Origin: Centroscyllium fabricii
Taxonomy: Eukaryota
Reading direction: 5' to 3'
NCBI GenBank assembly: GCA_051313645.2
Contig: JBNRSN020000008.1
Coordinates: 163,928,001 to 163,992,000, forward strand
Length of the DNA stretch: 64,000 nucleotides
Shown: positions 21,197 through 64,000 of the stretch, piece after piece
How positions within the stretch are numbered: the stretch's first letter is position 1
Layout of the letters: each line of letters opens with the position of its first letter
Program-made: the position numbers and the translations under genes
The notes under the pieces: model-generated
Told to the model about the DNA's origin: nothing
Database searches by the model: none
Seen by the model: only the letters and a program-made list of their open reading frames with translations

Positions 21197-21447
21197 TAGA
21201 AACATAGAAGATAGGAGCAGGAGTAGGCCATTCGGCCCTTCGAGCCTGCTCCGCCATTCAATGAGATCATGGCTGATCATCCAATCCCAGTAACCTGTCC
21301 CTGCCCTCTCCCCATATCCCTCGATCCCTATCGAGCCTGTACCGACACATATCCCACCCTATCCCCGTAACCCCACATATTTAATCCCCCTAACACTAAG
21401 GGTCAATTTATCATGGTCAATCAACCTAACCCGCACATCTTTGGACT
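21197..21447 (-). mobile_element. 5'-truncated V-SINE (HE1-like) with long CR1 tail
   Basis: Near-identical to the 3' halves of the copies at 42543-42967 and 56292-56691. Confidence 0.85.
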
Positions 21448-32858: not shown

Positions 32859-33988
32859 TCACATTTGATTTTGCTCCATCAACTGTCACGGTGTAGTCCG
32901 TGTCCACTAGGTGACTCTGTGAACCGAGTTTCTGAAGATTTGGTCCCAACTCCATCACCATTTTATATATATGTGTGGGCAACACCAGTGGAAATGCATT
33001 AGTATTCCAGAAAGGCTCTGGGGGCTCAAATATTATACAGCGATGTCAGCACTGAGAAACATGCTTAGGCACAACATATGCAATGATGCCGTGAGCATTC
33101 AAATGATGCAATTACTTTCTTAATCACTTCCGGTATAATATATGTTTTACCATTAACTTATGACAAAATATTGAAATCCATACTGAAAAGCTTTAGCAAT
33201 GGTACAATGAAAATGTAATTACTACGGGAAAACACAATTTTGTAGCATCAGGAACTGAACTATCAGAAAGAAACGCCCTCACAAGGGGACACTTTTTATA
33301 CAAACTGTAAGGGTTCGGGTAGGGCCCAAATGCAGAACACCGGAAGTCCGTCCAGTAGAAATAAAATACTTTTATTTCTAAGTACCAAAATATATATATA
33401 TACAGAGACCTTAACCACAGTGTTAAACAGTGAATGAACAAGTCAATAATCCCGAGTGCAGATAAATAGTAGTTCACAAGTCCAAACCCGAGTTCAGGTG
33501 GAAAATAGAGACAAGGCCAAAAACCAAGTGTCAAGGTACTCCCAGTAAATCCACATTCATGAAGAGATGAATCCTTAGTTCAGAGTTCAGCAAATAATCC
33601 AAAACGAAACAGGAACAGACACAAATCCAAATCGACAGAACAGGTATAATCCAAAACGACTGGAACAGGTATCAAATACAATATCAACTGGAACAGGTAA
33701 AGCTAAACAGAACACTGAAACAAGTGACATGAATTAACGATCTGGCAAAGACCAAGAGCCAGCAGAAAGCTTATATCCAGCTCTAGCTCAATTGTATGAT
33801 TGGCGCTGGCCAATCCGGTGTGAGACATGACAACAGGTAAAATAAGCCAATAAACAGAAAAGAAGCATCTAGAAATTTAAAGAGACAGTCCACCCATGAC
33901 AGAACCCCCCCCTTAAGGGACGACTCCTGACGTCCCCAAAAAACCCCAACAGCCGGAATCGGGTGGGCGGAGGGGTGCGGAGGAGGGA

Positions 33989-36900
33989 CTAACAGTCCTC
34001 GGGGCCCTCGTCAACTACCATCTCCTCATCGGACTGAAAAGGATCCTCCTGCTCAGCCGATTCAAGCACCTCGTAATCAGATGCCACTCCCGTGGCCAGG
34101 GCTTCCTGAATCGGTACGGGGTTGAAACCCTGTCTAGACTTCCTAGGGATCGCCGTTTTCTTATTCGACTGGCCGGGGTGTTTCCTGTGAAACTCAGAAA
34201 TGAGCCGAGGGTCCATAATATGACGAGCAGGGACCCAGGATCTCTCTTCCGGACCATACCCCTCCCAGTCCACCAGGTACTGAAGTCCCTTCCCTCGATG
34301 ATGGGAGTCAAGTAGACGACGAACCGTGTAGACTAACCCACCGTCGAGCATACGAGGAGGTGGAGGAGGTGCGGCAACGGGTACCAAGGCACTCTCCCGA
34401 GTAGGCTTGATGTGCGAAACGTGAAAAGTAGGGTGGACCCGCATGGATTTGGGGAGCTTGAGTCTCACCGCGGCAGGGTTTACGATTTTCAGCACCTCGA
34501 AGGGTCCGATAAACCGGGGAGCAAGTTTCTTAGATTCGACTTGTAGAGGCAGATCCCTGGTGGAGAGCCAAACCTTCTGCCCAACCCGATACTCCGGAGC
34601 CTCAGAACGACGACGGTTGGCAGCAGCCGAGTATCGATCCGCCGAGCGAAGCAATGAAATCCGGGCCTGATCCCATGTTCTGTGACAACGTTGAATGAAG
34701 TCCTGGACGGACGGACAGGATACCTCCTTCTCCAGGTCCGGAAACAATGGAGGCTGGAATCCATATGCGCACTGAAAAGGCGAAAGTCTGGTAGCGGAGC
34801 TGGTCAACGTATTGTGAGCATATTCTACCCACAATAGTAACTGGGACCAGGAAGAGTGATTCTTGGAGACCATGCACCGAAGAGCCTTCTCCATCTCTTG
34901 GTTCATCCTCTCCGACTGGCCATTGGACTGAGGATGAAATCCCGACGACAGACTGACAGTGGCCCCGATGAAGGCCCTGTCACACCTAGACGTTTTAGCC
35001 AGCGTATGCAAATTTGGCTAAAACGCTGGGTTACGTCGGATACGTTATGGGTACGTTATGCATACGTTACGAGAACGCTGGCATACGCTGGGCATACGCT
35101 GGGCATACGTTGCATACGTCGTTGTACTTCGAGTAAGTCGAGAATTTTTGAGCATGCACAAAAAATCTCGACGTATCTAGCGTATGATTCACACGTTCCG
35201 CATACGCTGGCCATACGTTGTAGGCACGTTAGGCAATCGTTGAACACACCTTACCTGTGCCCCTGTCATGCCCTGTCACACCTTGACGATTTCGTATGCC
35301 AACGTATCAACATTTATCTAAAACGTCGGCGATACGCTGCCGCGCGCTATGCATACGTTAGACTATCGTTGGGCATAAGTTGAGAACGCCGACAACACGC
35401 TAAGCATTCGTTGGTATAAGTTATCTGTAAGTTATCGATACGTTCTGTGTACGTTACTAATACGTTATGCATACGTTATGAATACGCTATTATACGCCCA
35501 AAACTGAAAAAAAGTCAAAAGTTCAGCGTTTTAGCCAAATTTGCATACGCTGGCTAAAACGTCTAGGTGTGACAGGGCCTTAAGACTACAAAACTCCCTC
35601 CAGAATATTGATGTGAATTGAGGGCCTCGATCGGAGACCACGTCCAACGGAAGCCCATGAAGACGAAACACGTGCTGCAACATGAGTTCCGCTGTTTCCT
35701 TAGCAGAGGCCAGCTTTGGTAGGGGTATAAAATGAGCCATTTTACTAAATCTGTCTACCACAGTCAGGACCGTGGTCAATCCCTTGGATGAGGGTAGTCC
35801 GGTGACGAAGTCCAGGGCTATGTGGGACCAAGGACGATGTGGTATCGGTAGGGGTTGCAGAAGACCAGCAGGAGCCCGACGAGACGACTTGTGTTGGCTA
35901 CAAACCGGGCAGGCATTAACGAACTCCCGGGTGTCCTCCTCCAGTGTGTCCCACCAGAACCTCCGCAAAACAACCTCCTTGGTCCTTTGTGCCCCAGGAT
36001 GGCAGGAAAACTTGGAAGCATGAGCCCACAGAAGAACATCAGGTCGAATGCTTGTGGGTACAAACAGACGGTCGGGAGGACAACTGCTGGGCCCACCCTG
36101 ATCCCCCACAGCTGCTCTCACTCTCTCCACGATCTCCCATGTGACCGCAGCAATAAGGCAGGGAGCTGGCAAAATAAGGTCCGATCCTGGAGCAGAACCC
36201 TCCTCTTTCAGAAATAGGCGGGATAGAGCGAGCATCGAGCTTGACGTTGCGAGACCCAGGCCTGTAGGAGAGAGTAAAATTGAATCTTGTGAAGAAGAGA
36301 GACCATCTAGCCTGGCGTGAATTTAATCTCTTTGCCTTGCGTATGTACTCCAAGTTCTTGTGGTCAGTCCAAACAAGAAACGGCAGCTTGGTCCCCTCCA
36401 GCCAATGGCGCCACTCATCTATGGCCATCTTGACCGCCAGTAATTCCCGGTTCCCGATATCATAATTCATCTCCGCCGGAGACAGGCGCTTGGAGAAATA
36501 AGCACATGGATGCAGTTTCTGATCAGAAATCGACCTTTGAGATAAGATGGCTCCTACTCCCACATCAGATGCATCCACCTCCACGACGAACTGTCGATCC
36601 GGATCAGGTACCTGGAGAATGGGAGCAGATGTGAATCGGGACCTGAGTTCCTGAAACGCCTCCTCTGCGGCGAGAGACCACCTGAATGGCACCCTTGATG
36701 AGATAAGCGCCGATAACGGTGCTGCTACCGTACTGTAGCCACGAATAAATTTACGATAAAAATTTGCGAAGCCCAGAAACCGTTGCAATTGTTTTCGTGT
36801 CTCTGGACTGGGCCAAGACGTAACAGCTGTCACCTTTTCAGGGTCCATCCGCATGCTCCCCTGCGCAATGATATATCCCAGGAAGGAGACGGTAGATACA

Positions 36901-38100
36901 TGGAATTCACATTTTTCAGCCTTAACGAATAAAGAGTTTTCCAAGAGTCATTGTAAGACCGTCTGAACGTGGTGCACATGCTCCTCCTGGGATTTAGAAA
37001 AAATCAGGATGTCATCCATATAGACGAATACGAAGCGATTGAGCATGTCCCGAAGGACGTCATTGACCAGGGCCTGAAATACCGCCGGGGCGTTGGTCAA
37101 CCCAAACGGCATAACGAGATACTCGTAATGTCCAGAGGGAGTGTTGAAGGCGGTCTTCCACTCATCGCCCTCCTGTATCCGGACCAGATGGTAAGCGTTG
37201 CGAAGATCCAATTTTGAAAATATGGTTGCCCCCTGTAGCAACTCAAACGCCGAAGAGATAAGAGGAAGAGGATACCGATTCTTGACCGTAATATCGTTCA
37301 GACCCCTGTAATCGATACATGGTCGGAGCGAACCGTCCTTCTTTCCTACAAAAAAGAATCCAGCCCCCACTGGTGACGAAGAAGAACGGATGATCCCCGC
37401 CGCCATCGAGTCTCCGATATAGGTCTCCATAGCCTCCCTCTCAGGTGCTGATAACGAATATAGGCGCCCCCTAGGTGGGGAAGAACCTGGCAACAATTCA
37501 ATGGCACAATCATAGGGGCGATGTGGAGGTAGCGACGTGGCTCTAGCCTTACTGAACACCTCCCCAAAATCCTGATAATCGGTGGGAACCGCAGACAGAT
37601 CAGAAGTGGGAAGAGGTGTGACAGACTGGCGGATTATGGTAGCTTGCTTCAAACAGACCTGGTGACAGGAGGAACTCCAGCCCAAAATGGCTCCCGTGTT
37701 CCAGTCGATGTGGGGGTTGTGTCGACGAAGCCACGTGTGTCCCAGAATAAGAGGAAGCCGGGGTGAATCTAAGATATGAAAGCGAATCCTCTCATGATGG
37801 TTTCCTGACAGAAGTAAATGAATCGGCGACGTTTGATGAGTCACCGTTCCCAGGATGTGGCCATCAAGAGCGTTGGCAGAAACCGGTTGTGGCAGTGGAA
37901 CCCGGTCGATCCCTAATTGTGTAACCAGCTCCTCATCTATGATATTGACATCCGCTCCTGAGTCAATGAAGATGGCGAACGTCTGAGATCCAGAAGGAAG
38001 AAGAAGTCTGGCCTGGCACAAGGGTCGTAAATCAGAAGAGAGTCTAGTCGGAGTTCGGCTCACCAGTACGACTCCATCTACTGGTGAGTCCGGTCTTTTA
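33989..38100 (-). pseudogene. Pol (PR-RT-RNaseH-IN-chromodomain) in -1 frame to gag, disrupted
   Basis: IDSGA protease, YMDD RT, VDASD RNase [19 protein letters not shown] integrase, GPF motif, chromodomain [15 protein letters not shown]. Lesions: TGA at 36948-36950, frameshift near 36235, MITE at 34972-35580. Confidence 0.93.
34972..35580. mobile_element. Harbinger MITE (609 bp) inserted in the integrase
   Basis: Long TIRs aggccctgtcacacctagacgttttagccagcgtatgcaaatttggctaaaacgctg at both ends; flanks TGA/TAA; removing it restores the integrase reading FCSLIGATV. Confidence 0.93.
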
Positions 38101-39046
38101 CTGGACACTGAAAAACAAAATGGCCGGTCCGACCACAGTAATAGCAAAGATTTTCCCTGCGGCGTCGCCTCCGCTCCAATGGTGAGATACCGGTGCGACC
38201 CAACTGCATCGGTTCGGGGCCCCCTGGCTCAGACCCTGAAGTAGCCGAATCTCTGAACGCCCCAAATCCATCCTGAACCTGCCTTGATGGATGGCGACCC
38301 GTTGTTCCCAGCCTTCTCTCACGTTGACGTGCCTGGATACGTAGATCGATCCTAGTGGCTAGGCTAATGAGATCATCCAAGGTGGAAGGAAGATCATGTG
38401 ACACCAATTCATCCTTGATGTAACCTGCCAGTCCGTGAAGAAAAACCTCACACAAAGCAGCCATATTCCAATTGCTCAAACGAGCCTTGATACGAAAATC
38501 AATAGCGTAATCCACAACAGCCTGATTGCCCTGGCTCATGCTCATGAGACCCTCAGCTGCTTCAGCCCCAAAGGTTACCTTACCGAAAACCCTTCTTAAT
38601 TCATGGGAAAATGTCCTGAACGAAATGCAAGCCTGAGTCTCCCTCTCCCACTCGGCTGTTCCCCAAAGTCGAGCTCTTCCTGTGAGATGATTTATAACAA
38701 AAGCTACCTTTGCCTTTTCGCTGGCAAAGGTGCGAGGTTGTAAAGAAAATAAAATAGAACAATTGGTAATAAATGGATCGCACTGTTCCGGTTCACCGGC
38801 ATAACGTTCCGGTACCCCGACTCGGGGCTCGGGTGTGAGACTTTGTAGGAGAGACATGGATGCCGACTCCGATGTCGAGGCTGGTTCTGGTGTGGAAGAA
38901 GCCCCTGCCGGATCCGACGCTGCTTGCGACCTCCAGGCGGAGGTTAGCTGCTCCATTTTGGAAAACATTTCCCCAAAGGCCCGGCCTTGGTGTGCTAGGG
39001 CATCCTCGATGAGTGCCAGACGTCTCGGTGTGTCCGCTGGGTCCAT
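38078..39046 (-). CDS. Gag of sushi-type element (322 aa, intact)
   Basis: [11 protein letters not shown] capsid motif, EPMQLG, zinc knuckle [14 protein letters not shown]. Confidence 0.92.
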
Positions 39047-40940
39047 GATTGGCCAGATCGTTCTGTAAGGGTTCGGGTAGGGCCCAAATGCAGAACACCG
39101 GAAGTCCGTCCAGTAGAAATAAAATACTTTTATTTCTAAGTACCAAAATATATATATATACAGAGACCTTAGTCAATAATCCCGAGTGCAGATAAATAGT
39201 AGTTCACAAGTCCAAACCCGAGTTCAGGTGGAAAATAGAGACAAGGCCAAAAACCAAGTGTCGAGGTACTCCCAGTAAATCCACATTCATGAAGAGATGA
39301 ATCCTTAGTTCAGAGTTCAGCAAATAATCCAAAACGAAACAGGAACAGACACAAATCCAAATCGACAGAACAGGTATAATCCAAAACGACTGGAACAGGT
39401 ATCAAATACAATATCAACTGGAACAGGTAAAGCTAAACAGAACACTGAAACAATTGACATGAATTAACGATCTGGCAAAGACCAAGAGCCAGCAGAAAGT
39501 TTATATCCAGCTCTAGCTCAATTGTATGATTGGCGCTGGCCAATCCGGTGTGAGACATGACAACAGGTAAAATAAGCCAATAAACAGAAAAGAAGCATCT
39601 AGAAATTTAAAGAGACAGTCCACCCATGACACAAACTGACATATATACAGTGGATCTTTGTTATATGCTGTAGGTTACAGGACAAAAATGTCAGCTATAA
39701 TCAGATTTCCTATTAAGAGGCAAAGTGTATATTATGACAGAGGAATAAGTACCTGGAGATAATCTGCATATATCAGAGATCTGCACACAATAGATGCACA
39801 GGTTTAACTGAAAGGGGAAACTGGGCAGTAACATTACATTGACGCAGCTATTTGACCTTTACTCACCATAATTAAAGTAAATCAAATTACTAAACATTGC
39901 CAAACAGAAATGCAATCACGTTGAGCTTATAAATATTCATTGATATGAACAGTCAGACAATCACTTCCATCATTCCTAACACAAATTAAACTCCTGTTTA
40001 CAAAATGATCAGCTCTGGAAAATGTTTACTTCTACAATATGCACCAGTGCCCAGCACCTTATGGTTTCTGCTTTGCATCACAGAAGAATAGACATGAATT
40101 CTCAAGATGCCCAAATATTTGATATGCACACCAGTCATATGTAGAGATTCATACATACCTGCAGTAACCGTGCACCCAAGTGTGGTGCAAAACTGACACA
40201 CAAAATTAAGATACTTCAAAAAAATTACTTAAAGTAGTGCTGAGGTATTGTATAATCGAAAGCATCACAAGGCAACCAATACCACTTGTGCTGGTTTATT
40301 TTTCATAAATATTTATCTAGCAAATTATTGCTGAGAGAAGCTTTTGGAAATACCAACAAATCATTAAACCTACCAAGTTAGCTGCACAACACTGAAACCT
40401 GGATCAAAAGACATTCTAGCCTAAACTTAAGACACTTGTTTCCTGAACCTAGCAAATCAGTCATTTGTAACTTACCACAATCAATCTTATTCCATATTTC
40501 ATGTCATCAGTTTATGTTTTCCTAGTCCTCACTGCACTCCAGTTCAACTTAAAGCACATAGATCCCCCAAAGAATTATTTCTGACACTTCTGGTAGTTAC
40601 TTCATTTCTTTAAGACCATATTGATCTGGGACATGCAACTACTAAAAGGTCTCCATCCTTCTAACAAGTAGTAGGTTCTGAATTAAGTACGAGCCTATCT
40701 TCAGTCATTCTAGTTTGTTCAAATTGTACTCAGTACCTTCAGGGGAAATGAGTAGCATTGGTAATGTGGAAATATGTCATGTTGGTATGATTAATTAAAC
40801 ATTTCTGGCTTAGGCACAAGGGAAACAAAAAAGGGTAAATCGGGTGTGTATTGTACCAGAAAAGTAAATAACCTGCTGGGGATGTTGGTTGTAGGAGATT
40901 GGAAACATGGAACTCAGTATACTTGCACTTCTTGAAGGGA

Positions 40941-42542: not shown

Positions 42543-42967
42543 TAGAAACATAGAAACATAGAAACATAGAAACATAGAAACTAGGAGCAGGAGTAGGCCA
42601 TTCGGCCCTTCGAGCCTGCTCCGCCATTCAATGAGATCATGGCTGATCATCCAAACCCAGCACCCCGCCCCTGCCCTCTCCCCATATCCCTCGATCCCTA
42701 TCGAGCCTGCACCGACACATATCCCACCCTATCCCCGTAACCCCACATAGTCAATCCCCCTAACACTAAGGGTCAATTTATCATGGGCAATCAACCTAAC
42801 CCGCACATCTTTGGACTGTGGGAGGAAACCGGAGCACCCGGAGGAAACCCACGCAGACACGGGGAGAATGTGCAAACTCCACACAGATAATACCCGAGGC
42901 TGGATTTGAACCCGGGTCTCTAGTGCTGTAAGGCAACAGTGCTAACCACTGTGCCACCGTGCCACCC
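42543..42967 (-). mobile_element. Full-length V-SINE (HE1-like) with CR1 tail
   Basis: tRNA head with A and B boxes, V-domain, (tttctatg)n tail. Confidence 0.9.
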
Positions 42968-43690
42968 TTATATAGAATTCAAAAGCAAATTTCGCAGCAC
43001 AATCAAGCTGAGGCCTATTGTGCAAGTCAATAGATAAGCCTGCATGCAACATTGTCATTTTACCTTCCTCTTCTAGCCCTGTGCCAGTTGGTGTTGCAAA
43101 ACGCAGTGGAGAGAAAGAAGAAGAGGATGTGGAGGAAGTTTACCAGCTTCCAATGCCATCATGCATTTTCTCCTGGCCAAGAACAGTACGGGACATGCAC
43201 TCAGGGGCCACTAGATAGTTTCCAGCAAGGAATAGCATTGGGTGATACGCTGAGTTTTCAGGAGGAGGGAGACAAGGAAGAAAATGATATTGCAGTTCCT
43301 GGCCAGAGGGTAAAGCGACGGAAGCCCTCAGGAACAGTTGGACCTAGATCTTGCAGGTGTGACCTTCAAGAGCCAGATACTCACAGAGCATCAAACCCAT
43401 ATGGAGTCATCAAGGCTGGTTTCCCACCATGTTCCGCACTTGTCAGCTCAGTTGGAGGAGTTCTCGGCTGACATGGGTCCAACCATGATGGATTGAGTCA
43501 GAGTACTGGATGCATTCCTTGATCAACTGGCTACTGCCAGTATGCCTTCAGAGGACATCACAATTCAAGAGGCTCAAGGGTCAGGGGCAGCATGCTGTGT
43601 GGCAAGCCTTAATTCTGTCATGTAGACCTTGGGTGACGAGTCTTCTCCACAGGCCTATTGGAAGTTGGTAACAGGATGAAGAGAGCCATT

Positions 43691-44090: not shown

Positions 44091-45241
44091 TTAAAAAAAA
44101 TTAGCCATGGCTTCACTGAACTTTCATGGACCATTGTGACTAGAGTCTCTCAGTCCATTGGCCTTATAGAAGCAATGCCATGAGCCAGGGGGTTGATTGG
44201 TTGATCATAATGTCACTCAGGACAGTATAGCAAGCAACACATCTGATGAGTCATTCATAGGGGACATACTCGTGGCCATGTCAAGCTGCCCAGATCGAAG
44301 GTGTGCAGTTAAAGATACCATACTGGTAGATTGTAGAACATAGGCAACATGAGAGGAAGGCCACTTCAGGACCAAGAGGTACATGATATTGCTGGGCAAC
44401 TAACCACATCACCATCTTCAAGCACTCGGAGAACTTAATGGGGAACCAACAAGGTTAGGAGCATTTAGAGGAATGGACAGAGGCATGAACGGGATGCATC
44501 ATGTTGGTGAACAGTGATTGGTAATGTAGCAAGTGGTAGTTTGCTACATTGTATGAAAATTTCCCACCCAGAGTCATGTGTCTGGTTTTGTGGCCAGCTG
44601 CTGCAGAATGTGTGTTCTTATTTCCAGTATCCCCATTGCCAGCCTGGAATAAACCTGAGGCAATAAAAAATGATGGCTAATGTTTCCTTTACTGCCACAG
44701 GGAAGGTAGTTGGAGTCAGGAAGTGAGGCTGAGGTTCATGCGCAACATATCACAATGTTCCTGGATTGCTTCCTTGTATAACGCAAAGCTTCTTGACACA
44801 TAGAAACACAGAAACATAGAAGATAGGAGCAGGAGTAGGCTATTCAGCCCCTCGAGCCTGCTCTGCCATTTAATGAGATCATGGCTGATCATCCAAATTC
44901 AGTACCCTGTTCCTCCTTTCTCCCCATATCCCTTGATCCCTTTAGCCTTAAGAAATATATCTAACTCCTTCTTAAATATATTTAATGAATTGGCCTTAAC
45001 TGCATTTTGTGGTTGAGAATTCCACAGGTTCACCACTCTCTGGCTGAAGAAATTCCTCCTCATCTCTGTCCTAAATGGCTTACCACTTATCTTTAGACTG
45101 TGACCCCTGGTTCTGGACTCCCCCACCATCGGGAACATCCTTCCTGCAACTAGTCTGTCCAGTCCTGTTAGAATTTTATAAGTTTCAATGTGATCCTCTC
45201 TCATTCTTTTAAACTCCAGCGAATATGAGCCCAATCGACCC

Positions 45242-48200
45242 TGTGATGAAACCTGTTTGTATTGATCCTGTGCTGTTTAGTTTCACTTTCTATTCCCGAC
45301 TAACCTGGGAGGTTCCGGGAATTGGTTTTGTGCTACGCCCACTCTGTCCTGTATATAAGGACTAACCCGAGTACCTGACTCCATTCTTTGTGAGACGTTC
45401 TACCGGTTGTAATACTACTGTAATTCCAAGTTATTAAAAACCTTTCCTTTTAAACCTATGAATCGAGTCGTATAGTAATTGAAGGCACTTCAATTTTAAT
45501 AACTTGATGTATTAGGATGGACCATCGGCTACTCAAACCCGACAGCCTGGATTTGGCCCCGATGGCCGCTGACGCTTCTAAGCAATTCGGCCACTGGCTC
45601 AGGTGCATCGAGCTGTACGCGAAGGCCTCTGCTGCCACCGCAGCACAGAAGCTGAACCTGCTGACCACTCAGGTGAGCCACCAGGTCTACTCGCTCATCC
45701 AGGACGCCACCGACTACGCTGCAGCCATCGCCATACTGAAGGCCCAATATCAGAGGCCGGTGAACGAGGTCTATGCCAGGTACCGACTGGCTACTCGCAG
45801 ACAACGGCCCGAGGAATCCGCCGACGACTACTTCCAGGTACTGAGAAACCTGTCCAGAGACTGCAATTTCGAAAGTGTAGAGGCGACTGTGTATGCGGAC
45901 GAGATGATCAGAGACTCTTTTATTGCCGGGCTAAGATCAAATTACATTCAGCAAAGGCTGCTGGAGCAGGAGGTATTGGACTTAAACAAAACGGTGGCCA
46001 CGACGCGATCGCTGGACGTGGCCCAGAAGAACTCAGACTCGTACTCCTGCGGCCATGCAGCCCTCGGGGCCTCGTGCGTGATGAACGAGCCGTCATGTTG
46101 GAATTGGCCATCTTCGTCGCCCCCCTGCTCCACGCCACCAGAGTCCCATTACAGGAATCAATCTCGGAGCCCCACCGCCGCTGCGATGTCTCGGGGTGCT
46201 AAATGCTACTTCTGCGGACAGCTCAAGCATCCCCGGCAGCGATGCCCCACGAAGAGCGCCATTTGTTTCAAGTGCCAGAAGAAAGGGCGCTATGGGAAGG
46301 TCTGCAGAGGGAACCCTTCCCCGGACTCGGTCGCAGCCTCGTGCGGCCCCTGCGAGTGGCCATCTTGGTGCCAGCCATCTTGCCCGGACCAGGGCCCTAC
46401 TGTGGCCTCGACCGCCCAAATCACCGTGGACCAATCGAGACCTCACCCACTGACGAAATCAATGATGGACATCAGGGTAAATGGCAAGGTAACAAAATGT
46501 CTAATCGACTGCGGGAGTACAGAGAGCTTTGTACACCCAAGCCTGGTACGGCGACACCCGCTGATGGTAACCCCCACCCAGAGCAAAATCGCGATGGCGG
46601 CCAAGTCCCACACTTCGGTCATTACAGGCTACTGCGTGGTCACGCTCACAGTTAAGCGGACGGACTATGAGAGCTTTAAACTCCTGGTAATGCCAGCGCT
46701 CTGTGTGGACGTAATCCTAGGCCTGGATTTCCAATGCCATCACTAGAGCGTTACGCTAACGTATGGCGGGTCCCAGCCACCGCTCACGGTCTGCAGCCTC
46801 TCAACCTTAAAAATCAGCCCGCCCTCCCTATTCGCGAACCTTACCCCAAACTGCAGGCCGATTGTGACCAAAAGCAGGCGGTACAGCCAAGAGCATAGAC
46901 AGTTTATTAAGGCCAAGGTCCCGTTTGGGGTGACTAATGGGGTCTCCGTCTTCCAGCGGGAGATGGACCGCATGGTGGATGAGCACCAACTGCAAGCCAC
47001 CTACCCCTACCTTGACAATGTCACCATCTGCGGGCACGACCAACAAGATCATGACAGAAACCTGGCGCGTTTTTTAAAAACGGCGCAGGCGCTTAATTTA
47101 ACTTATAACAAAGACAAGTGTGTCTTTAACACAAATCGCCTCAACATCCTCGGCTGCATGGTAGAGCATGGTTTGATCGAGCCCGACCCGGACTGCCTGC
47201 ACCCGCTTTGGGAACTACCCCTACCGCACACCCCCAAAGCCCTGAAAAGGTGCCTGGGGTTCTTTTCATATTACGCGCAATGGGTACCAAAGTATGCCGA
47301 CAAGGCCCGACCCCTCATACGATCTACGTCCTTCCCACTGTCGGCGGAGGCCCGGGAAGCTTTCACGAACATCAAAAATGATATCGAGTGGGCGGCCATG
47401 TGCACGGTAGAAGAGAACCTCCTTTTTCAGGTCGAGAGCGACGCATCAGATTTCGCTCTAGCGGCGACACTGAATCAGGCGGGACAGCCTGTTGCTTTCT
47501 TCTCACGGATCCTCTAAGGGCCCAAAATCAGGCACTCCTCTGTTGAGAAGGAGGCACAGGCCATTGTGGAGGCGGTAAGGCACTGGAGGCACTACCTGGC
47601 CGGCAAACGGTTCACCCTCCTCACCGACCAATGGTCAGTGGCCTTCATGTTTAATAACAAACAATGGGGGAAAATAAAAAATGATAAAATACTCAGGTGG
47701 AGGCTCGAGCTGTCCACCTATAACTACGATATTATGTACCGCCCGGGGTCCCTCAACGAGCCCCCAGACGCGCTATCACGGGGGACGTGCGCCAGTGCCC
47801 ACGTTAGCAGGCTCCGCGGGCTCCACGATGACCTCTGCCACACCGGGGTCACCCGAATGTACCGCTTTATCAAATCACGCAACCTGCCCCACTCCATCGA
47901 GGAGGTGAGGGAAGTAACCAAAAGCTGCCACATCTGTGCATAGTGCAAGCCCCATTTTTACAGGCCCACCTCATTAAAGCCACTCGGCCTTTCGAGCGTC
48001 TGAGCCTGGACTTCAAGGGTCCCCTCCCCTCCACTGACCGAAACGTGTACTTCCTCAACATAATTGATGAGTACTCGCGTTTCCCTTTCGTCATACCCTG
48101 CCCGGACATGACCAGTGCCACCATCATCAGCAGCCTCAACCACCTCTTCTGTATGTTTGGCATGCCGAACTACATCCACAGCGATAGAGGGGCGTCGTTC

Positions 48201-49150
48201 ATGAGCGACAAGCTGCGCCAGTTCCTACTCGCTAGGTGGATTGCCACTAGTAGAACCATTAGCTACAACCTTAGGGGTAACTGGCAGGTACAATGGGAAA
48301 ATGCCACGGTATGGAAGGCCGCCACTCTAGCCCTAAGGTCGAAAGGCCTGCTGACCTCCCACTGGCAGGAAGTCCTCCCTGACGTGCTGCAGTCGATTAG
48401 GTCGTTACTGTGCATGGCCACTAATGCCACCCCGCATGACCGGATGTTCACTTTTCCCAGAAAATCTACCTCGGGGGTATCTCTCCCCACCTGGCTGATG
48501 TCCCCAGGGGCAGTCCTGCTGCGGAGACACATAAGGGGCCACAAGACGGACCCCCCTGTGGAAAGGGTACAGCTCCTTTACACGAACCCGCAGTACGCCT
48601 ATATTGAGTACCCTGATGGATGAGAAGACACCGTCTCTATAAAGGACCTCGCGCCCTCGGGGGGCGACGAGGAAGGCGAGCCTCCTGAAGAAACCAGCCT
48701 CCCTGGGCCCTCAAGCACTCGTGACGACCAGGAAGACAACCCCACGCCAGACGTTACCATTGAGGCCCAAGCAGAACTCGAGGAGCCTCCTCAACCAGCC
48801 CCTCGCCGATCGCTAAGGACCATCACACCCCCAGATAGACTCTCATACACCAACTTTTGAATCACCCCCTCCATGGACTAAATCTGGAGAAGGGGTGCAT
48901 GTGATGAAACCTGTTTGTATTGATCCTGTGATGTTTAGTTTCACTTTCTATTCCCAACTAACCTGGGAGGTTCCGGGAATTGGTTCTGGGCTACGCCCAC
49001 TCTATCCTGTATATAAGGACTAACCCAAGTACCTGACTCCATTCTTTGTGAGACGTTCTCCCGGTTGTAATACTACTGTAATTCCAAGTTATTAAAAGCC
49101 TTTCCTTTTAAACCTACGAATCAAGTCGTATAGTAATTGAAGGCACTTCA
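45242..49150 (+). mobile_element. Ty3/Gypsy LTR retrotransposon with short LTRs, decayed, internal RT deletion
   Basis: LTRs 45242-45492 and 48900-49150 (251 bp, ~10 differences by eye); TSD GACCC (45237-45241, 49151-49155); purine tract before the 3' LTR. Confidence 0.96.
45517..48860 (+). pseudogene. gag-pol of the Gypsy element (gag and pol in one frame, now broken)
   Basis: Two zinc knuckles (CYFCGQLKHPRQRC, CFKCQKKGRYGKVC), IDCGS protease, YLDN RT, ESDASD RNase H, LDFKGP/SDRG integrase. Stops at 46744, 47515, 47941, 48621; N-terminal half of RT missing at ~46915. Confidence 0.9.
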
Positions 49151-52100
49151 GACCCAATCTCTCCTCATATGTCATTCCTGCCATCCCAGGTATCAGTCTG
49201 GTGAATCTTCGCTGCATTCCCTTCATGGCAAGAACATCCTTCCTCAGATAAGGCGACCAAAACTGCACACAATACTCAAGATGTGGTCTCACCAAGGCCC
49301 TGTACAACTGCAGCAAGACATCCTTGCTCCTGTACTCAAATCCTCTCGCCATGAAGGTCAACATAGTATTTGCCTTCTTAACCACCTGCTGCAGCTGCAT
49401 GCTTACCTTCAGCGACTGGTGTACAAGGACACCCAGGTCTCTTTGCAATTCCTCTTCTCCCAAGCTATTGCCATTCAAATAATAATCTGCATTCCTGTTT
49501 TTGCCACCAAAGTGGATAACCTCGCATTTATCCACATTATACTGCATCTGCCATGCATCTGCACAATCACCCAACCTGTCCAAATCATACTCGAGTTTCT
49601 CGGCATCCTCCTCACAGCACACGTGCCCACCCAGCTTTGTATCATCTGCAAACTTGGAGATATTACATCTAGTTCCCTCGTCTAGATCATTTATATATAT
49701 TGTGAATAGCTGGGGTCCCAGCACTCGATCCCTGCAGTACCCCACTAGTCACTGCCTGCCACTCGGAAAAAATACCCGTTTATTCCAACTCTTTGCTTCC
49801 TGTCTGCCAACCAGTTCTCTATCCAAGTCAATACCTTACCCCCAATCCATGTGCTTTGACTTTACATGCTAATCTCTTATGCGGGGCTTTATTGAAAGCC
49901 TTCTGAAAGTCCAAATACACCATATCCATTGGTTCTCCCTTATCTATTCTACCAGTTACATCCTCAAAAAATTACAGTAAATTAGTCAAGCACAATTTAC
50001 CTTTTGTAAATCCATGTTGACTTTGTCTGATCCTGTCACTGTTTTCCAAGTGCTTTGCCATTACAATTTTTATAATGGACTCTAGCATTTTCCTGACTAC
50101 CGATGTCAGGCTTACCAGTCTATAATTCCCTGTTTTCTCTCTACCACCTTTTTTAAATAGTGGGGTTACATTAGCTAACCTCCAACACATGGGAACTGTG
50201 TAGGAGTCTATAGAATTTTGGAAGATGACCAGCAATACATCTACTATTTCTTGTACCACTTCCTTAAGTACCCTAGGATATAGATTATCAGGCCCTGGGG
50301 ATTTATCGGCTTTCAATTCCATCAATTTCCCTAACACCATTTCCCAACAAATACTGATTTTATTCAGTTCTTGCATCTCATTAGACCCTATGTTTCCCGA
50401 TTTTTCTGGGAGGTTATTTGTGTCCTCCTTTGTGATGACATAACAAAAGTATGTATTTAATGGGTCTGCCATTTCTTTATTCCCCATTATAAATTTCCCT
50501 GATTCTGACTGCAAGGGACCTCTGCTTGACTTCACCAATCTTTTTCTCTTCACATATCTATAGAAGCTTTTACAGTCAGTTTTTATGTTCCCTGAAAGCT
50601 TACTCTCATACTCTATTTTCCCCCTCTTAATTAATCATTTTGTCCTAAACTGCTCCCAATCTGCAGGTTTGCTGCTTTTTCTGGCCAATTTATATGTCCT
50701 CTCCTTGGATCTTATGCTGAACCTAATTTCTCTTGTTAGCCATGGTTGTGCCACGGTTTTTGTTTTATTTTTATGCCAGACAGGGATGAACAAATTCTAT
50801 AGTTCATCCATGTGATCTTTAAATGATTGTCATTGCCTATCCACCATCAATTCTTTAAGTAATGTTCCCCAGTCCATCCTAGCCAACTCGCACCTCATAC
50901 CATCATAGTTTCCTTTATTTAAATTCAGGACCCTAGTCTCTGAGTCAACTACTTTACTCTCCATCTTAACGAAGAATTCCATCATATTATGATCACTCCT
51001 CCCCAAGGGGCCTCGCACAACAAGATTGCTAATCAATCCTTTCTCATTACATAATACCCAGTCTAACAAGGCCTGATCTGTTGTGGTTGCTCAACATATT
51101 GGTCCAGGAAACCATCCCGTATACACTCCAGGAATTCCTCCTCCACAGTATTGTTACTAATTTGGTTAGCCCAATTTATATGTAGATTAAAGTCACCCAT
51201 AATAACTGCAGTGCCCTTATTGTACGTGTATCTAATTTCCTGTTTAATGTCATCCCCAACCTCAGCATTACTGTTTGGGGGTCTACATACAACTCCCACT
51301 AACATTTTCTGCCCCTTGGTATTTCTCATCTCTACCCATACAGATTCTGCATCATCAGAGCTATATCCTTCCTTACTATTGTGTTAATCTCCTCTTTAAC
51401 CAGCAATGTTACCCCACCTACTCTTCCTTTTTGCCTGTCCTTCCTAAATATTGAATACCCCTGGATGTTGGATTCCCAGCCTTGGTCACCCTGGAGCCAT
51501 GTCTCCATAATCCCAATTATATCATATCTGTTTACATCTATTTGTGCAGCTAATTTATCCACCTTATTACGAATGCTCCTCTCATTAAAACACAAAGCCA
51601 TCAGGCTTGCTTTTTTAACACACTTCATCCTTTTAGAATTATTAATTATTGTGGCCCTGTTTGATTTACACACTTGATTTCTCTGCCTTCCCCTTTTGCT
51701 TTTCTCCTTCCTGTCTTTTGCTTCTATCCTTGCTTCCCTTTCCTCTGTCTCCCTGCACAGGTTCCCAACCCCCTGCCATTTTAGTTTAAACCCTCCCCAA
51801 CAGCACTAGCAAACACTCCTCCTTGGACATTGGTCCCAGTCCTGCCCAGGTGCAAACCCTCCAGTTTGTACTGGTCCCACCTCCCCCAGAACCAGTTCCA
51901 ATATCCAAGGAATTTGAATCCCTCCTCCTTGCTCCATTCCTTTAGCCACATATTAATCTGAAATATCCTTTGTTTCCTACTCTGACACACACGTGGCACT
52001 GGTAGCAATCCTGAGATTACTACCTTTGAGGTCCTATTTTTTAATTTACCTCCTAACTCCCTATATCCAGCTTTTAGTACCTCATCCTATTTTTTAGTTA

Positions 52101-54080: not shown

Positions 54081-54277
54081 CTGGAATTTGAATTTGATTT
54101 TATTTACTTATAAAGCGCACCTATAATGAAAACATATATTCTAATGCACTGTACATTAAAAAGTAATATAATGATACATGTAAAATTTAAATTAAATCAT
54201 ATAATGTTTATAAGCATAGGCTAAAAGTTAAATTTCATTGTATACTGTATAATATATGCTATGTAAACATTAATTAC

Positions 54278-55368
54278 CTGGTCCTCATGAGGTTGTGCAG
54301 GATCAAGCATGCTTTGACAATGAGCTTGACAGTGGAGGGGTGATGCTGCATGGTACTTAGCAGAACCTGGAATCTGTTAGCCAGGATGCCGAATGCATTT
54401 TCTACTACCCTTCTTGCTCGGCTAAGCCTGTAGTTGAAGATGCGTTCTTCATTCGTCATTCCACGGAGGCTGAATGGCTTCATCATGGTTGGTCGTAAGG
54501 CGAAGGCATCGTCACCGATGAAGAAGTAAGGCACGTCCTGGTTGTCGTAGGGAAGAGGCTCAGGGTCAGTGAAACCAAGGGTACCGTCTTCAGCGCATTG
54601 CTTTAGCTCAGAGCCATTGTATATCTGCGCATCTGATGCAGATCCAGTACCGCCGACATCTGCCCAAATAAATTTGTAGTCTGCATCTACAAGCGCCATC
54701 AGAACAATGGAGTAGAATCCTTTGTAATTGTAGTACTGTGACCCAGTCTTTGGAGGACAGCGGCAGGCCACGTGCTTCCCGTCAAGTGCCCCACATGTAT
54801 GGGGAAAGTTCCATCTTTGGAAGAACTTGTCAGCTATGGCGCGCCAACCATCAGGAGTAGTTGGGCAAACCATCACCTCATCCACGTATTCGTCAATAAT
54901 GGCTTGACAGACTTCTCTGACCACTATGGACTGGGTGTTGTGAGGGACCCTCCATGCGAACTTCATCGAGGCATACTTGTTTCCAGAGGCAAGGTGACGC
55001 AAAGTCATTGCCAGCTTCATGCCAGGCTCAAGCGGATCCCTGTAGAAGGTGTACTGCTTGGTTATCCTTGGACCCACTCTGGCTAGCAGCTCGTCGAACA
55101 TCGCTGGGGGCATACGCAGGAAGTTGGTGAAGGATGCATGGTCCTCGTTACGGAGTTCCACCATGAGCTGGTCATACATGCCAAACTGCCGTCGCCTCCC
55201 GATCCATGGTCTCACCCAGTTCCTTCTCCTCCGTTCAGCTAATCTTCTCTTGGCTCTTTTGGCACGCCTCTGGTACAGTGCAAAATCGAAGAGTGCTTGT
55301 TGATGTTGGAGGACAGCTAGTAGTAATTCTCGTCTTGCCGGATCCTCCATCTCTTGGATAATGGACAT
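54278..55368 (-). CDS. Harbinger DDE transposase exon 1
   Basis: NFLRM, LAMTLRHLASG, catalytic GALDGKH / IGDDAF / VVENAFG, LHN. TATATAAA at 55428-55421 upstream of ATG 55368. Donor AG|GTAATT at 54278/54277. Confidence 0.9.
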
Positions 55369-56291
55369 CTGCTCACCATGGAGTCTGGAACACTGACTGG
55401 TTCCTCCTGTGAAACCCCTTTTTATATACCAAATTCCCAACGCTGCCAGTACGCCATTATACATTAGCTGTAAGTTAGAAACACGTTCAGTAAGGTCTGT
55501 GGTCGTCCGCAAGACGTCAAATACGTCTACATATGTCAATATGCGTTGGAGATACGTTACGCATAAGTTCAAAGCACGTTACTCATAGGTTAGACATAAG
55601 TTCCTGGAAAAATAGACATTATCTCGACGTATTATGACGTATGACTAAAGTGTGTCAACGATCGCCTAACGTGCCTGCAACGTATGTTCAGCGTATGCTG
55701 AGCGTATAAAGAGTTACATTTATACGTCGTGATTTTTTGTGCATGCACAAAAAATCACGACTTAAATGACGTATACAGCTTATGTCCAGCGTATGGCAAC
55801 GTTCTCTTACCGTATGCATAACGTACCCATAACTTGTCCAACGTATACCAGCGTATCGGCCAAATTTGCATACGCAAGCTAAAACGTCAAGGTGTGACAG
55901 GGCCTTAAATCAGGAAGGATACATAAAAAGACCTGGAGTTAGCGGAGCGTGTCCCCATGTGGATTTATGCCCCCACTCCGCCCTTGGCAGAGAGCAGCAT
56001 AAAACCTTTGATTGGGTTCATTTGAATGATTTTAGAGCAAGAAAGGAATAATAAAGTACCCTTAATCCTTTTCTGCTTGAGCCATTTTAAAGTGAAGAGA
56101 GCAACACAAAGTAATATTTCACACTGGCAAATTAGGTTTATTTTAGTGATCTTAAAATGGCTAGGAAAAACAGAAATAGTAATAGCTACAATCCTTGATT
56201 CATCCATGTCACTCACATTTCCTGTCTGTCCAGGTATGTGTATGTATATGTGTGTGTGTGTATCTATATATATTTATTATATATACTCTCT

Positions 56292-56691
56292 GGGCGGCAA
56301 GGTGGCATAGTGGTTAGCACTGTTGCCTCACAGCGCTAGAGACCCGGGTTCAAATCCAGCCTCGGGTTCTATCTGTGTGGAGTTTGCACATTCTCCCCGT
56401 GTCTGCGTGGGTTTCCTCCGGGTGTTCCGGTTTCCTCCCACAGTCCAAAGATGTGCGGGTTAGGTTGATTGGCCAGGATAAATTGACCCTTAGTGTTAGG
56501 GGGATTGAATATGTGGGGTTACGAGGATAGGGTGGGATACGTGTCGGTGCAGGCTCGATAGGGATCGAGGGATATGGGGAGAAGGCAGGGACAGGGTACT
56601 GGGTTTGGATGATCAGCCATGATCTCATTGAATGGTGGAGCAGGCTCCAAGGGCCGAATGGCCTACTCCTGCTCCTATCTTCTATGTTTCT
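56292..56691 (+). mobile_element. Full-length V-SINE (HE1-like) with long CR1 tail
   Basis: A box tggcatagtgg, B box ggttcaaatcc, V-domain tgtgtggagtttgcacattctccccgtgtctgcgtgggtttcc. Confidence 0.9.
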
Positions 56692-60740: not shown

Positions 60741-61032
60741 CAGATTTGAGGTAGTGTATCCTACCACTCCATTTTACTCTTTTTAGCATCCCAAAACTGC
60801 CCAAAAATGGGTTGTAATTAGAAGGACAATTAAGCTCCAGATGCTCTACTTTGCAATTAGAAGAAGCAATTATGAGCACATGAGATGGGTCAAGCATTTT
60901 AACTACTGGACATTCTGACAGAGGCACAGATCCAAGATCCATGTGAGGTCCAGGTGAGATAAGGACTACAACTGTAATGATGATAAGCAATCTTTACTAA
61001 TCTGTACAGAGCATGTGTAACATAAACAAGCA

Positions 61033-61348
61033 GGGCGGCACGGTGGCATAGTGGTTAGCACTGTTGCCTCACAGCGCTAGGGGCCCGGGTTCAAATCCAG
61101 CCTCTGGTACTATCTGTGTGGAGTTTGCACATTCTCCCCGTGTCTGCGTGGGTTTCCTCCGGGTGCTCTGGTTTCCTCCCACAGTCCAAAGATGTGCGGG
61201 TTAGGTTGATTGGCCATGATAAATTGACCCTTAGTGTTAGGGGGGTTAAATATGTGGGGTTACGGGGCTAGGGTGGGATATGTGTCAGTGCAGGCTCGAT
61301 GGGCCGAAATGGCCTCTATCTGCACTGTAGGGATTCTATGATTCTATG
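61033..61348 (+). mobile_element. V-SINE (HE1-like), short-tail form
   Basis: Same head and V-domain as 56292; tail gggccgaaatggcctctatctgcactgtagggattctatgattctatg. Confidence 0.9.
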
Positions 61349-62366: not shown

Positions 62367-64000
62367 TGTGGCGACACGCCCACCAGAACCATCGAATCCG
62401 CCTCGGGAGTGCTGCGAGACGGCCCCGCCCGCCGGGCGGCGTGATGACATCACCGCGACTTCCGGCGTGATGACGTCGCTAGGTGGACACCCGGCAGTGA
62501 TGTCACCAACCGCGGGACCTTTAAATACCCTGGTTCTAGGTGGCTCAGTCTCTTTCTCCACCTGGCCCTAGCTGTGTTAGTAATAAATGATAACTTTCTG
62601 AATCTTCTGTGTCCAGTGTGGTTCTTCGGCCCTGCATGCCTCTACAGTGGTGACCTCGATACTTGGAACGAATTCCAAGGGAACAATGAAGCAGTCGCTG
62701 CAGGACTGAGGGCCAAGCTGCCTCAGTTGAATCGCAACCACCATGTCAGCAGGGATCGAAACAGCACGCCACCACAGACGGGGCCAGCACTACGGCCAAA
62801 TCCCAACCTTACCTGAGTTCTGGGAACTCCGTCCAGCGGCCTGGTTCCTCAACACGGAGAACACCTACCGCATCTATGGCGTGCAGGGGGATGATCGTTA
62901 CAGCCTGCTCTTCGCGGCCCTTTCGCAGCCCACGATCGACCGAATGTGGGCATCAATCCAGCAAGAACTAACTGCTGGCAGGTACGAAACGCTTAAGGCC
63001 GCGCTGCTAGAAAAATTTACCCCCACCCAATTTGAGCGCGACTGCCAGCTCATCAACCTCCCCGATCTAGGGGACGCAGACCCATCCGACCTTTGGGCCC
63101 AATTTGAAGCGCTTAACTGCGACCCGGCCACCATTAAGCGCGCCTTGTTCCTCCTTAAACTGCCCCCCTCCGTCAGACCGGCTCTGACGGTCCTTGAGCA
63201 CTACACCAAGGAGCAACTGGCTCAGGAGGCCAACAAGCTGATGAGGGCCGAGCGCACCCGAGCCGCCACGCGCCAAACCACTGCTGCTCCACCGGAGCAG
63301 TACTACGCGCACCCCAGGCCCGGGCCCAGGTCCCAACCCAGAGCGGTGCGGACCCACAAAAAGCCACGCACCACAGGCCCAGGCTGGTGCTACTACCACA
63401 CCAGGTTCGAAGCCAAAGCGCAGCGCTGCGTCCAGCCCTGCACCTTCAAACCCCAAACCAGCCCAAGCCCCACCATGTCCGTAGGCCGCTCCGGAGCACT
63501 GCTCTTCGTCACGGACAGTGGTTCAGGCCTCCGCTTCCTCTGCGACACAGGCGCGCAGCACAGCATCGTGCCAGCTCCCCCGCAGAAACCAAGCAAGGCA
63601 CCCAAGGCCCACCACTCGAAGCCGCAAACGGCTCCGAGATAGTTACGTTCGGCACCCGCCAGCTTACCATCAAGCTGGCAGGCCACACGTACAAGTGGGA
63701 CTTCATCACAGCACAAGTCAAAATACCCCTACTCGGTGCCGACTTTCTGTGCACCCTCGGCCTCCTGGTCGACGTTACCCGACGACGCCTGGTCGACATC
63801 CACAACATGTCGACCATCCCATGCTCCACAGGGCCGGCACACCAGACCCACGCAGCGTCCCACTGCCGAGCCCGGAACTCCAACACGTACGCCACACTGC
63901 TCGCGGAGTTCCCAGCCCTCACCAACCCCACCTTCACAGCCCGTACGGCCAAGCACGGGGTGGAGCACCACATCACCACCACAGGTGCCCCAGTCCATGC
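62367..64000 (+). mobile_element. Ty3/Gypsy element, CsRn1-type; 5' LTR, PBS, gag and protease, truncated by window end
   Basis: LTR ~62367-62646 (TG...CA, tttaaata TATA-like, AATAAA); PBS TGGTGACCtCGA at 62648 resembles tRNA-Trp complement; ORF follows. Confidence 0.85.
62743..63642 (+). CDS. Gag (CHCC type) running into protease; frame breaks after DTG
   Basis: LPEFWELRPAAWF; CYYHTRFEAKAQRCVQPC (C-X2-H-X9-C-X3-C); FLCDTGAQHS; protease continues in another frame (AANGSEIVTFG...PLLGADFL). Confidence 0.82.
   Translation: MSAGIETARHHRRGQHYGQIPTLPEFWELRPAAWFLNTENTYRIYGVQGDDRYSLLFAALSQPTIDRMWASIQQELTAGRYETLKAALLEKFTPTQFERDCQLINLPDLGDADPSDLWAQFEALNCDPATIKRALFLLKLPPSVRPALTVLEHYTKEQLAQEANKLMRAERTRAATRQTTAAPPEQYYAHPRPGPRSQPRAVRTHKKPRTTGPGWCYYHTRFEAKAQRCVQPCTFKPQTSPSPTMSVGRSGALLFVTDSGSGLRFLCDTGAQHSIVPAPPQKPSKAPKAHHSKPQTAPR

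Follow-up and report, generated by a model that had tools for sequence, protein, structure and literature searches.

A Gypsy retrotransposon in Centroscyllium fabricii appears to prime its reverse transcription with a piece of its own long terminal repeat (LTR). The sequence that follows its 5' LTR, where a primer should bind, is an exact 13-nt complement of an LTR segment, hereafter S, that contains the poly(A) signal ATTAAA. We are highly confident that this pairing is real, that it extends across the clade and that it very likely reflects self-priming. The best single model, to which we assign a probability of roughly 0.6, is that the copy of S inside the 5' LTR serves as an internal primer after a predicted cut at its 3' end, at the poly(A) signal. 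To our knowledge, self-priming has been worked out only for the Tf1-type chromoviruses, where the primer is the 5' end of the RNA. Here, a distant lineage without a chromodomain appears to reach independence from tRNA in a different way, with its primer tied to the poly(A) signal. If this is true, self-priming would have had a second origin in Gypsy, the lineage would be beyond the reach of tRNA-fragment silencing, and the failure of tRNA-based LTR finders to detect these primer sites would be explained.

The window, by which we mean the whole 64,000-nucleotide stretch that was analyzed, comes from a host genome of 7.2 Gb (G000). The element is a decayed copy that occupies 45242-49150 on the + strand, between LTRs of 251 nt each (45242-45492 and 48900-49150) that begin with TG, end with CA and are 96% identical, with 10 differences. 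Its features are as follows.

45237-45241, +: left target site duplication GACCC (right copy 49151-49155), within a CR1-like LINE remnant whose reverse transcriptase remnants flank the element
45242-45492, +: 5' LTR, 251 nt, TG...CA, from the LTR pair comparison
45352-45359, +: TATA box TATATAAG, 75 nt upstream of S; the box-to-initiator layout is common to the L200 family
45381-45387, +: initiator-like CCATTCT, common to the L200 family; its A at 45383 (TATA+31) is the predicted transcription start
45427-45439, +: segment S, the predicted self-primer, with ATTAAA at 45433-45438
45438-45440, +: putative site of the RNA cut and of the minus-strand strong stop, placed between 45438 and 45439 or one nucleotide further on, based on aberrant solo LTR junctions and fold-back registers
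45493, +: spacer of one base (A) that separates the LTR from the primer site, the same in relatives
45494-45506, +: primer-binding site TTTTAATAACTTG, complement of S, without TGG
45517-46746, +: gag with a CCHC-like knuckle, and protease, terminating in a stop codon
46747-48656, +: broken pol with reverse transcriptase (RT), RNase H and integrase, without a chromodomain
48886-48895, +: polypurine tract GGAGAAGGGG, from the sequence
48900-49150, +: 3' LTR, carrying the second copy of S at 49085-49097

The TG...CA LTRs, target site duplication, polypurine tract and order of protease, RT, RNase H and integrase place the element in Ty3/Gypsy, and among solved structures an intact relative matches Ty3 Gag-Pol best. 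The damage to pol consists of about 93 missing RT codons near 46915-46944, internal stops and a frameshift near 47970. The RT motif, in the interval 46990-47040, reads YLDN in place of YxDD, as it does in P0005; P0032 has YLDD.

The initial annotation had proposed a perfect 13-nt LTR complement one nucleotide past the 5' LTR, lacking TGG, and this was confirmed. The primer site pairs at 13/13 with S and with the copy of S in the 3' LTR, and none of 5000 dinucleotide shuffles of the LTR reached an anchored 13-nt complement (maximum 12, mean 3.7). The position of ATTAAA within S was also as described. When 45383-45530 is folded, the helix between S and the primer site appears in the minimum-energy structure as well as in the centroid, and the region as a whole is not more stable than its shuffles (z 0.17). 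The same 13-mer primer site is found in 28 of 29 other family copies, a sample biased towards likeness because it comprises the best-scoring 29 of 1606 candidates; 24 of these copies pair at 13/13 and five at 12/13. A TGG tRNA-type site is absent from all 30 family copies and from all 14 LTR-paired relatives. A decayed tRNA site, which the initial annotation had raised in the form of a family consensus with a normal tRNA primer site, is ruled out, as 28 of the 29 nearest copies share the 13-mer and none carries TGG. ARAGORN found no tRNA in the 64-kb window, a result that is uninformative.

Pairing extends well beyond this family. Among sister-family genome loci collected by two Gag searches, it was present at 47 of 57, in a layout of CA, one base and the complement of an LTR segment ending in TAAA; it was not recovered at the other 10, several of which are truncated or interrupted. 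A metagenome scan retained 80 loci, and the 29 that had a Gag start and enough upstream DNA were scored. Twenty-four of these pair at 11/13 or better (16 of them at 13/13) and five fall under 11/13. Where the LTR end was fixed by an LTR pair, all 14 metagenome loci show CA, one base and a T-rich site, with no TGG, a count that excludes five other listed loci whose repeats stem from contig ends or circular assembly. The lineage is widespread in animals, with named relatives in corals, anemones, crustaceans, a spider, a sea cucumber, a fluke and a nematode, and relatives carry single ORFs of 1150-1250 aa. Four contig sets from relatives contain the family, though contigs cannot reveal where RNAs start or end. 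A scan of IMG/VR returned no relative, and the protein atlas yielded Gag clusters only, all unnamed.

The initial annotation had suggested collecting relatives and asking whether the sequence after the LTR co-varies with the poly(A) region of the LTR, and it does. After removal of four weak loci (L103, L130, L145 and L148), the co-variation set comprised 33 loci with 23 distinct primer-site 13-mers. At positions 5-13, a primer site pairs with its own S at 8.74 of 9 positions as compared with 5.37 for the S of other families, a value equaled in 0 of 100000 permutations. Because S was selected as the best-pairing partner, such self-pairing scores are partly built in, and it is the pair types that carry the weight: across the 23 variants, 9 of the 13 pairing positions show two or three Watson-Crick pair types. 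In one group of families, swaps between AATAAA and ATTAAA in S are matched by swaps in the primer site. What stays constant across families is the CA at the LTR end, the three T opening the primer site, the C-G pair at position 10 and, in most cases, a GCC or ACC following S; the duplex spans 13-16 nt and S lies 24-68 nt from the primer site. Since minus-strand DNA must begin at the primer site, each family must use a primer that resembles S. With pairing clade-wide and compensatory changes among 23 different 13-mers, the primer is thus very likely to be element RNA. Priming of the half-tRNA type by an internal tRNA fragment is unlikely because each of the 23 variants follows its own LTR. Two minor observations concern individual loci. 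On the metagenome contig L145, a single copy of uncertain contig order, the site pairs at 10/13 with an LTR segment lacking any poly(A)-like hexamer. Apparent primer copies retained after the 3' LTR in L091 and L118 were rejected as alignment over-extensions.

A class of aberrant solo LTRs yields a base-precise prediction of the cut site. In the sister family L032, a junction search for primer sites continuing into further LTR complement gave 38 matches, of which 29 are aberrant LTRs (28 called by script and L233 by eye). These run from U3 through R and S into an insert, a T followed by the end of U5 in reverse complement, and then into the normal remainder, which resumes at AG/CC in 26 of the 28. 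Most inserts are 17-18 nt long, and in the nine 17-nt cases the A cannot derive from U5. Target site duplications of 5 bp are exact in 20 aberrant LTRs and have one mismatch in four, and a primer site follows 0/29 aberrant LTRs versus 7/30 ordinary ones (Fisher p 0.011). The insert classes are scattered on an LTR tree with weak support, requiring 8 changes for 9 rows and 10 for 13. The same aberrant class occurs in L207, which belongs to the family of the window element, and in L250, L251 and L284. The junction pattern was also sought for the L061/L063 type, with no match, and one search pattern for poly(A)-tailed retrocopies returned none.

The insert is what RT would make first when extending S on the primer site. 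When the fold-back registers of a strong-stop DNA with its end opposite the A of AGCC are ranked, lengths of 17, 18 and 22 nt come within the best three; L207 (29 nt), L245 (7 nt) and L251 (20 nt) fit these registers poorly, and the junctions of L213, L214, L234, L243, L250, L296 and L301 have microhomology, so plain template switches are possible there. The aberrant LTRs fit a strong-stop DNA that ends one base inside S, which is the likely cut site, and a cut one base inside the duplex would place the primer end two bases from the CA of the LTR. A strong-stop DNA ending at the cut may fold back and copy its own start and the primer; having lost the primer, it could not perform the second jump and would integrate as a solo LTR. 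This suggests that some solo LTRs integrate directly and not via recombination. These LTRs mark a DNA end and are silent on which copy of S primed, fitting a Tf1-type 5' primer equally well.

Another set of loci (L169/L192, L288, L289, L292, L299, L300, L305 and L312) consists of short units made up of an LTR, the primer site and an inverted U3-R, with two U3 ends. L169 (= L192), a plus-strand fold-back reaching the U3 start, has a 5-bp target site duplication; plus-strand DNA folded back in this way can therefore integrate by itself. Such plus-strand fold-backs to the U3 start indicate that DNA-level switching at the inverted repeat also occurs.

The position of S relative to the promoter bears on whether the primer is the 5' end of the RNA. 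In the window LTR, S lies 75 nt downstream of the TATA box and 44 nt downstream of the initiator; the L200 family has the same TATA-plus-initiator block, with S 38 nt below the initiator. Of 46 sister LTRs, 40 have the TATA box 85-98 nt upstream of S, and none has it at -24 to -36; no clear TATA box was seen by eye in the invertebrate relatives. A control is available in the same window, where a sushi-type chromovirus with a chromodomain lies at 33305-39634 (-), with LTRs of about 600 nt that are 95% alike. Its 11-nt self-primer (39476-39466) is at TATA+29 and pairs with a site one base past the 5' LTR, in agreement with the one-base spacer that the initial annotation had likened to that of a self-priming sushi element, and its AATAAA is more than 300 nt beyond the self-primer. 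Because the TATA box is 75-98 nt upstream of S as opposed to the +29 self-primer of the control, S is probably internal to the transcript, 40-65 nt from the RNA 5' end, unlike in Tf1. The TATA spacing and the control thus lend indirect, sequence-level support to the earlier suggestion that S is not the RNA 5' end. Complements that continue past the primer site were considered as a marker of the start site and rejected, as their ends are scattered and often fall at the U3 start. In two copies of the window family the extended complement stops near 45388 (39 nt), and in the L200 group the ends are at 13, 21, 34, 49, 66, 102 and 179 nt, with most at the full 200-202 nt. Scattered and full-length ends of this kind fit fold-back of plus-strand DNA and are therefore no evidence on the start site.

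In the internal-primer model, transcription would begin about 30 nt downstream of the TATA box, near 45383, and the 5' copy of S would fold onto the primer site 54 nt downstream. The RNase H of the element would then cleave roughly one base short of the 3' end of the duplex, just as the self-primer of Tf1/Tf2 is cut by RT. Extension of the freed S end through U5 to the cut would give a strong-stop DNA of only about 25-70 nt, whose jump would land in the short region that separates the poly(A) signal from the RNA 3' end. Plus-strand copying of the primer would rewrite the primer site in every cycle, and the co-variation would thereby be enforced. The model needs some stop of plus-strand copying at 13 nt, given the long 5' tail of the primer. 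In L114 and L150, S is just 24-28 nt from the primer site, and the predicted strong-stop DNA is accordingly extremely short.

Which copy of S primes, and from what kind of RNA end, can be weighed against three other readings. The 3' copy is equally complementary, and genomic RNA, or a short LTR transcript acting in trans, might be cut at the poly(A) signal, which would free a 3' end able to pair with the primer site. In a variant of this, the start site would lie just after S and the poly(A) signal in U3, as is the case in avian sarcoma-leukosis virus LTRs. The location of the end of S at the poly(A) hexamer in most families would suit such a primer, as would the aberrant solo LTRs, which run U3-R-S straight into minus-strand bases and would need no extra jump if the primer carried U3. 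However, the 5' copy is 24-68 nt from the primer site and should fold first, an uncut 5' R would give strong-stop DNA through S and not one ending at AG/CC, and by eye no TATA-like box stands 30 nt above AGCC, the canonical one being upstream. We therefore regard priming by the 3' copy as unlikely, if worth keeping in mind. We hold as similarly doubtful the wider proposal that a Gypsy lineage spread across animals uses the 3' end of its genomic RNA as primer, with one 13-nt element combining the functions of primer, poly(A) signal and 5' anti-termination switch in a third mode beside tRNA priming and Tf1-type 5' priming, and with fold-back solo LTRs preserving strong-stop intermediates.

Ordinary Tf1-type self-priming would require a packaged RNA whose first base is that of S, and with it a start site independent of the TATA box. 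The duplex of 13-16 nt, the one-base spacer and the cut on the 3' side of the primer do match the Tf1/sushi geometry, the pairing ends sharply at about 13 nt as expected of a 5' end, and the fission-yeast Tf2 uses alternative start sites according to the available part of PMC5341516. We consider this quite improbable nonetheless, since the TATA box is never at -24 to -36 from S, two families retain the TATA-plus-initiator block with S lying 44 and 38 nt below the initiator, and the flanking 'pretzel' helices of Tf1 are wanting: in a crude duplex test, each beats shuffles at p<=0.05 in just 2 of 23 families. It seems highly improbable that the pairing serves solely as a switch to conceal the poly(A) signal of the 5' LTR, with some other RNA as primer. 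Such a role would agree with the coverage of AATAAA or ATTAAA by 12 of 19 distinct metagenome sites and 8 of 8 genome types, and with the lower predicted accessibility of the first four bases of AUUAAA in the 5' than in the 3' context (unpaired probability 0.09-0.17 vs 0.34-0.60). But the complement begins exactly at the obligatory start of the minus strand, any primer would have to be S-like in 23 variants, seven of the 19 sites cover no canonical hexamer, and the aberrant LTRs display S extended on a U5 template.

Masking of the poly(A) signal is modest in these folding predictions and would be a side benefit of the internal primer in families that have AATAAA or ATTAAA in S. In the seven metagenome types without either, the primer site pairs with segments whose alternatives include GTTAAA, TTTAAA and GATAAA, and in L088, L094 and L131 a canonical hexamer lies further downstream. 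The initial annotation had offered a distinct self-priming mode, a poly(A) switch or both; self-priming by an LTR piece is strongly supported by the compensatory pairing and the aberrant solo LTRs, and the case for masking as the main purpose is weakened by these seven sites. RNA structure also covers the hexamer in the 5' repeat of HIV-1 and related viruses, as in the polyA hairpin, and these are tRNA-primed. The hexamer is covered in both systems; in the window lineage, the covering strand is the primer site itself. In the L032 and L200 families, U5 has a second, imperfect complement of the hexamer region, and an alternative hairpin could compete with the primer duplex.

Among known systems, Tf1 and Tf2 of S. 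pombe, Tj1, Tosmo1-3 and the other Tf1/sushi chromoviruses are closest in mechanism, and RT is said to cleave their self-primer from the RNA (available parts of PMC5341516, PMC4600332 and PMC10085805). The window lineage resembles them in having no tRNA site, a primer site complementary to its own LTR and a one-base spacer. Elements of the Tf1/sushi group use the 5' end of the RNA as primer, a long way from the poly(A) signal and folded into a three-duplex 'pretzel', and their integrase carries a chromodomain (PMC10085805), whereas S in the window lineage is 75-98 nt below the TATA box and ends at the poly(A) hexamer. No chromodomain was found in 32 full-length relatives by a scan that detects it in the neighboring chromovirus, and RT-RNase H identity to that chromovirus is 29-31%, as compared with 52-64% within the clade, which upholds the earlier statement that the element is not a chromovirus. 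Judged by sequence, the window lineage works like Tf1 but is not a member of that group.

Cigr-1, which Simmen and Bird are said to have described in 2000, reportedly has LTRs of 245 bp and one ORF of about 1210 codons. These sizes are similar to those of the window lineage, and Cigr-1 is a plausible candidate clade name for the lineage. It forms a small clade of the Mag lineage in Ty3/Gypsy (PMC6238403), in Ciona and also molluscs, and the available part of that paper gives no priming mode. The Saci2/lennie clade was rejected, as the window lineage has 5-bp target site duplications versus 4 bp in the accessible text of PMC12471100, which also reports tRNA-type primer sites. Beyond Tf1/sushi, self-priming has been predicted for plant TAR-lineage Copia elements (Houba, Osr-1) and for Tcn1 from a complement of at least 10 bp between the post-LTR sequence and the LTR (PMC6317226, in part). 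They share predicted self-priming with the window lineage but belong to plant Copia or chromovirus lineages, and the available part of PMC6317226 gives no indication of a primer located at the poly(A) signal. Skipper elements have neither a tRNA site nor an LTR complement, according to the part of PMC5006619 at hand. No account of the mode appears in the accessible portions of PMC3601003, PMC13524379, PMC3587641, PMC12471100, PMC6238403, PMC8556966, PMC6934838, PMC12440569, PMC2836005 or PMC10886601. More generally, no description of this priming mode was found in the full-text literature, a scope that leaves out most subscription journals, Repbase Reports and GyDB. Repbase may contain entries on self-primed Gypsy families of sea anemone, so the complement itself may already have been noted. 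New to this analysis are the use of aberrant solo LTRs as evidence on the cut site and the chromovirus control within the window.

The window also contains other mobile elements and repeats. A 434-codon ORF at 54274-55578 (-) encodes a DDE transposase of the Harbinger/ISL2EU type (PF13359), and a 303-codon frame at 62731-63642 with DUF7041 is probably the Gag of another LTR element. Four related repeats of 250-400 nt, 94-96% alike and present in both orientations, lie at 21197-21447, 42567-42968, 56292-56691 and 61032-61303.
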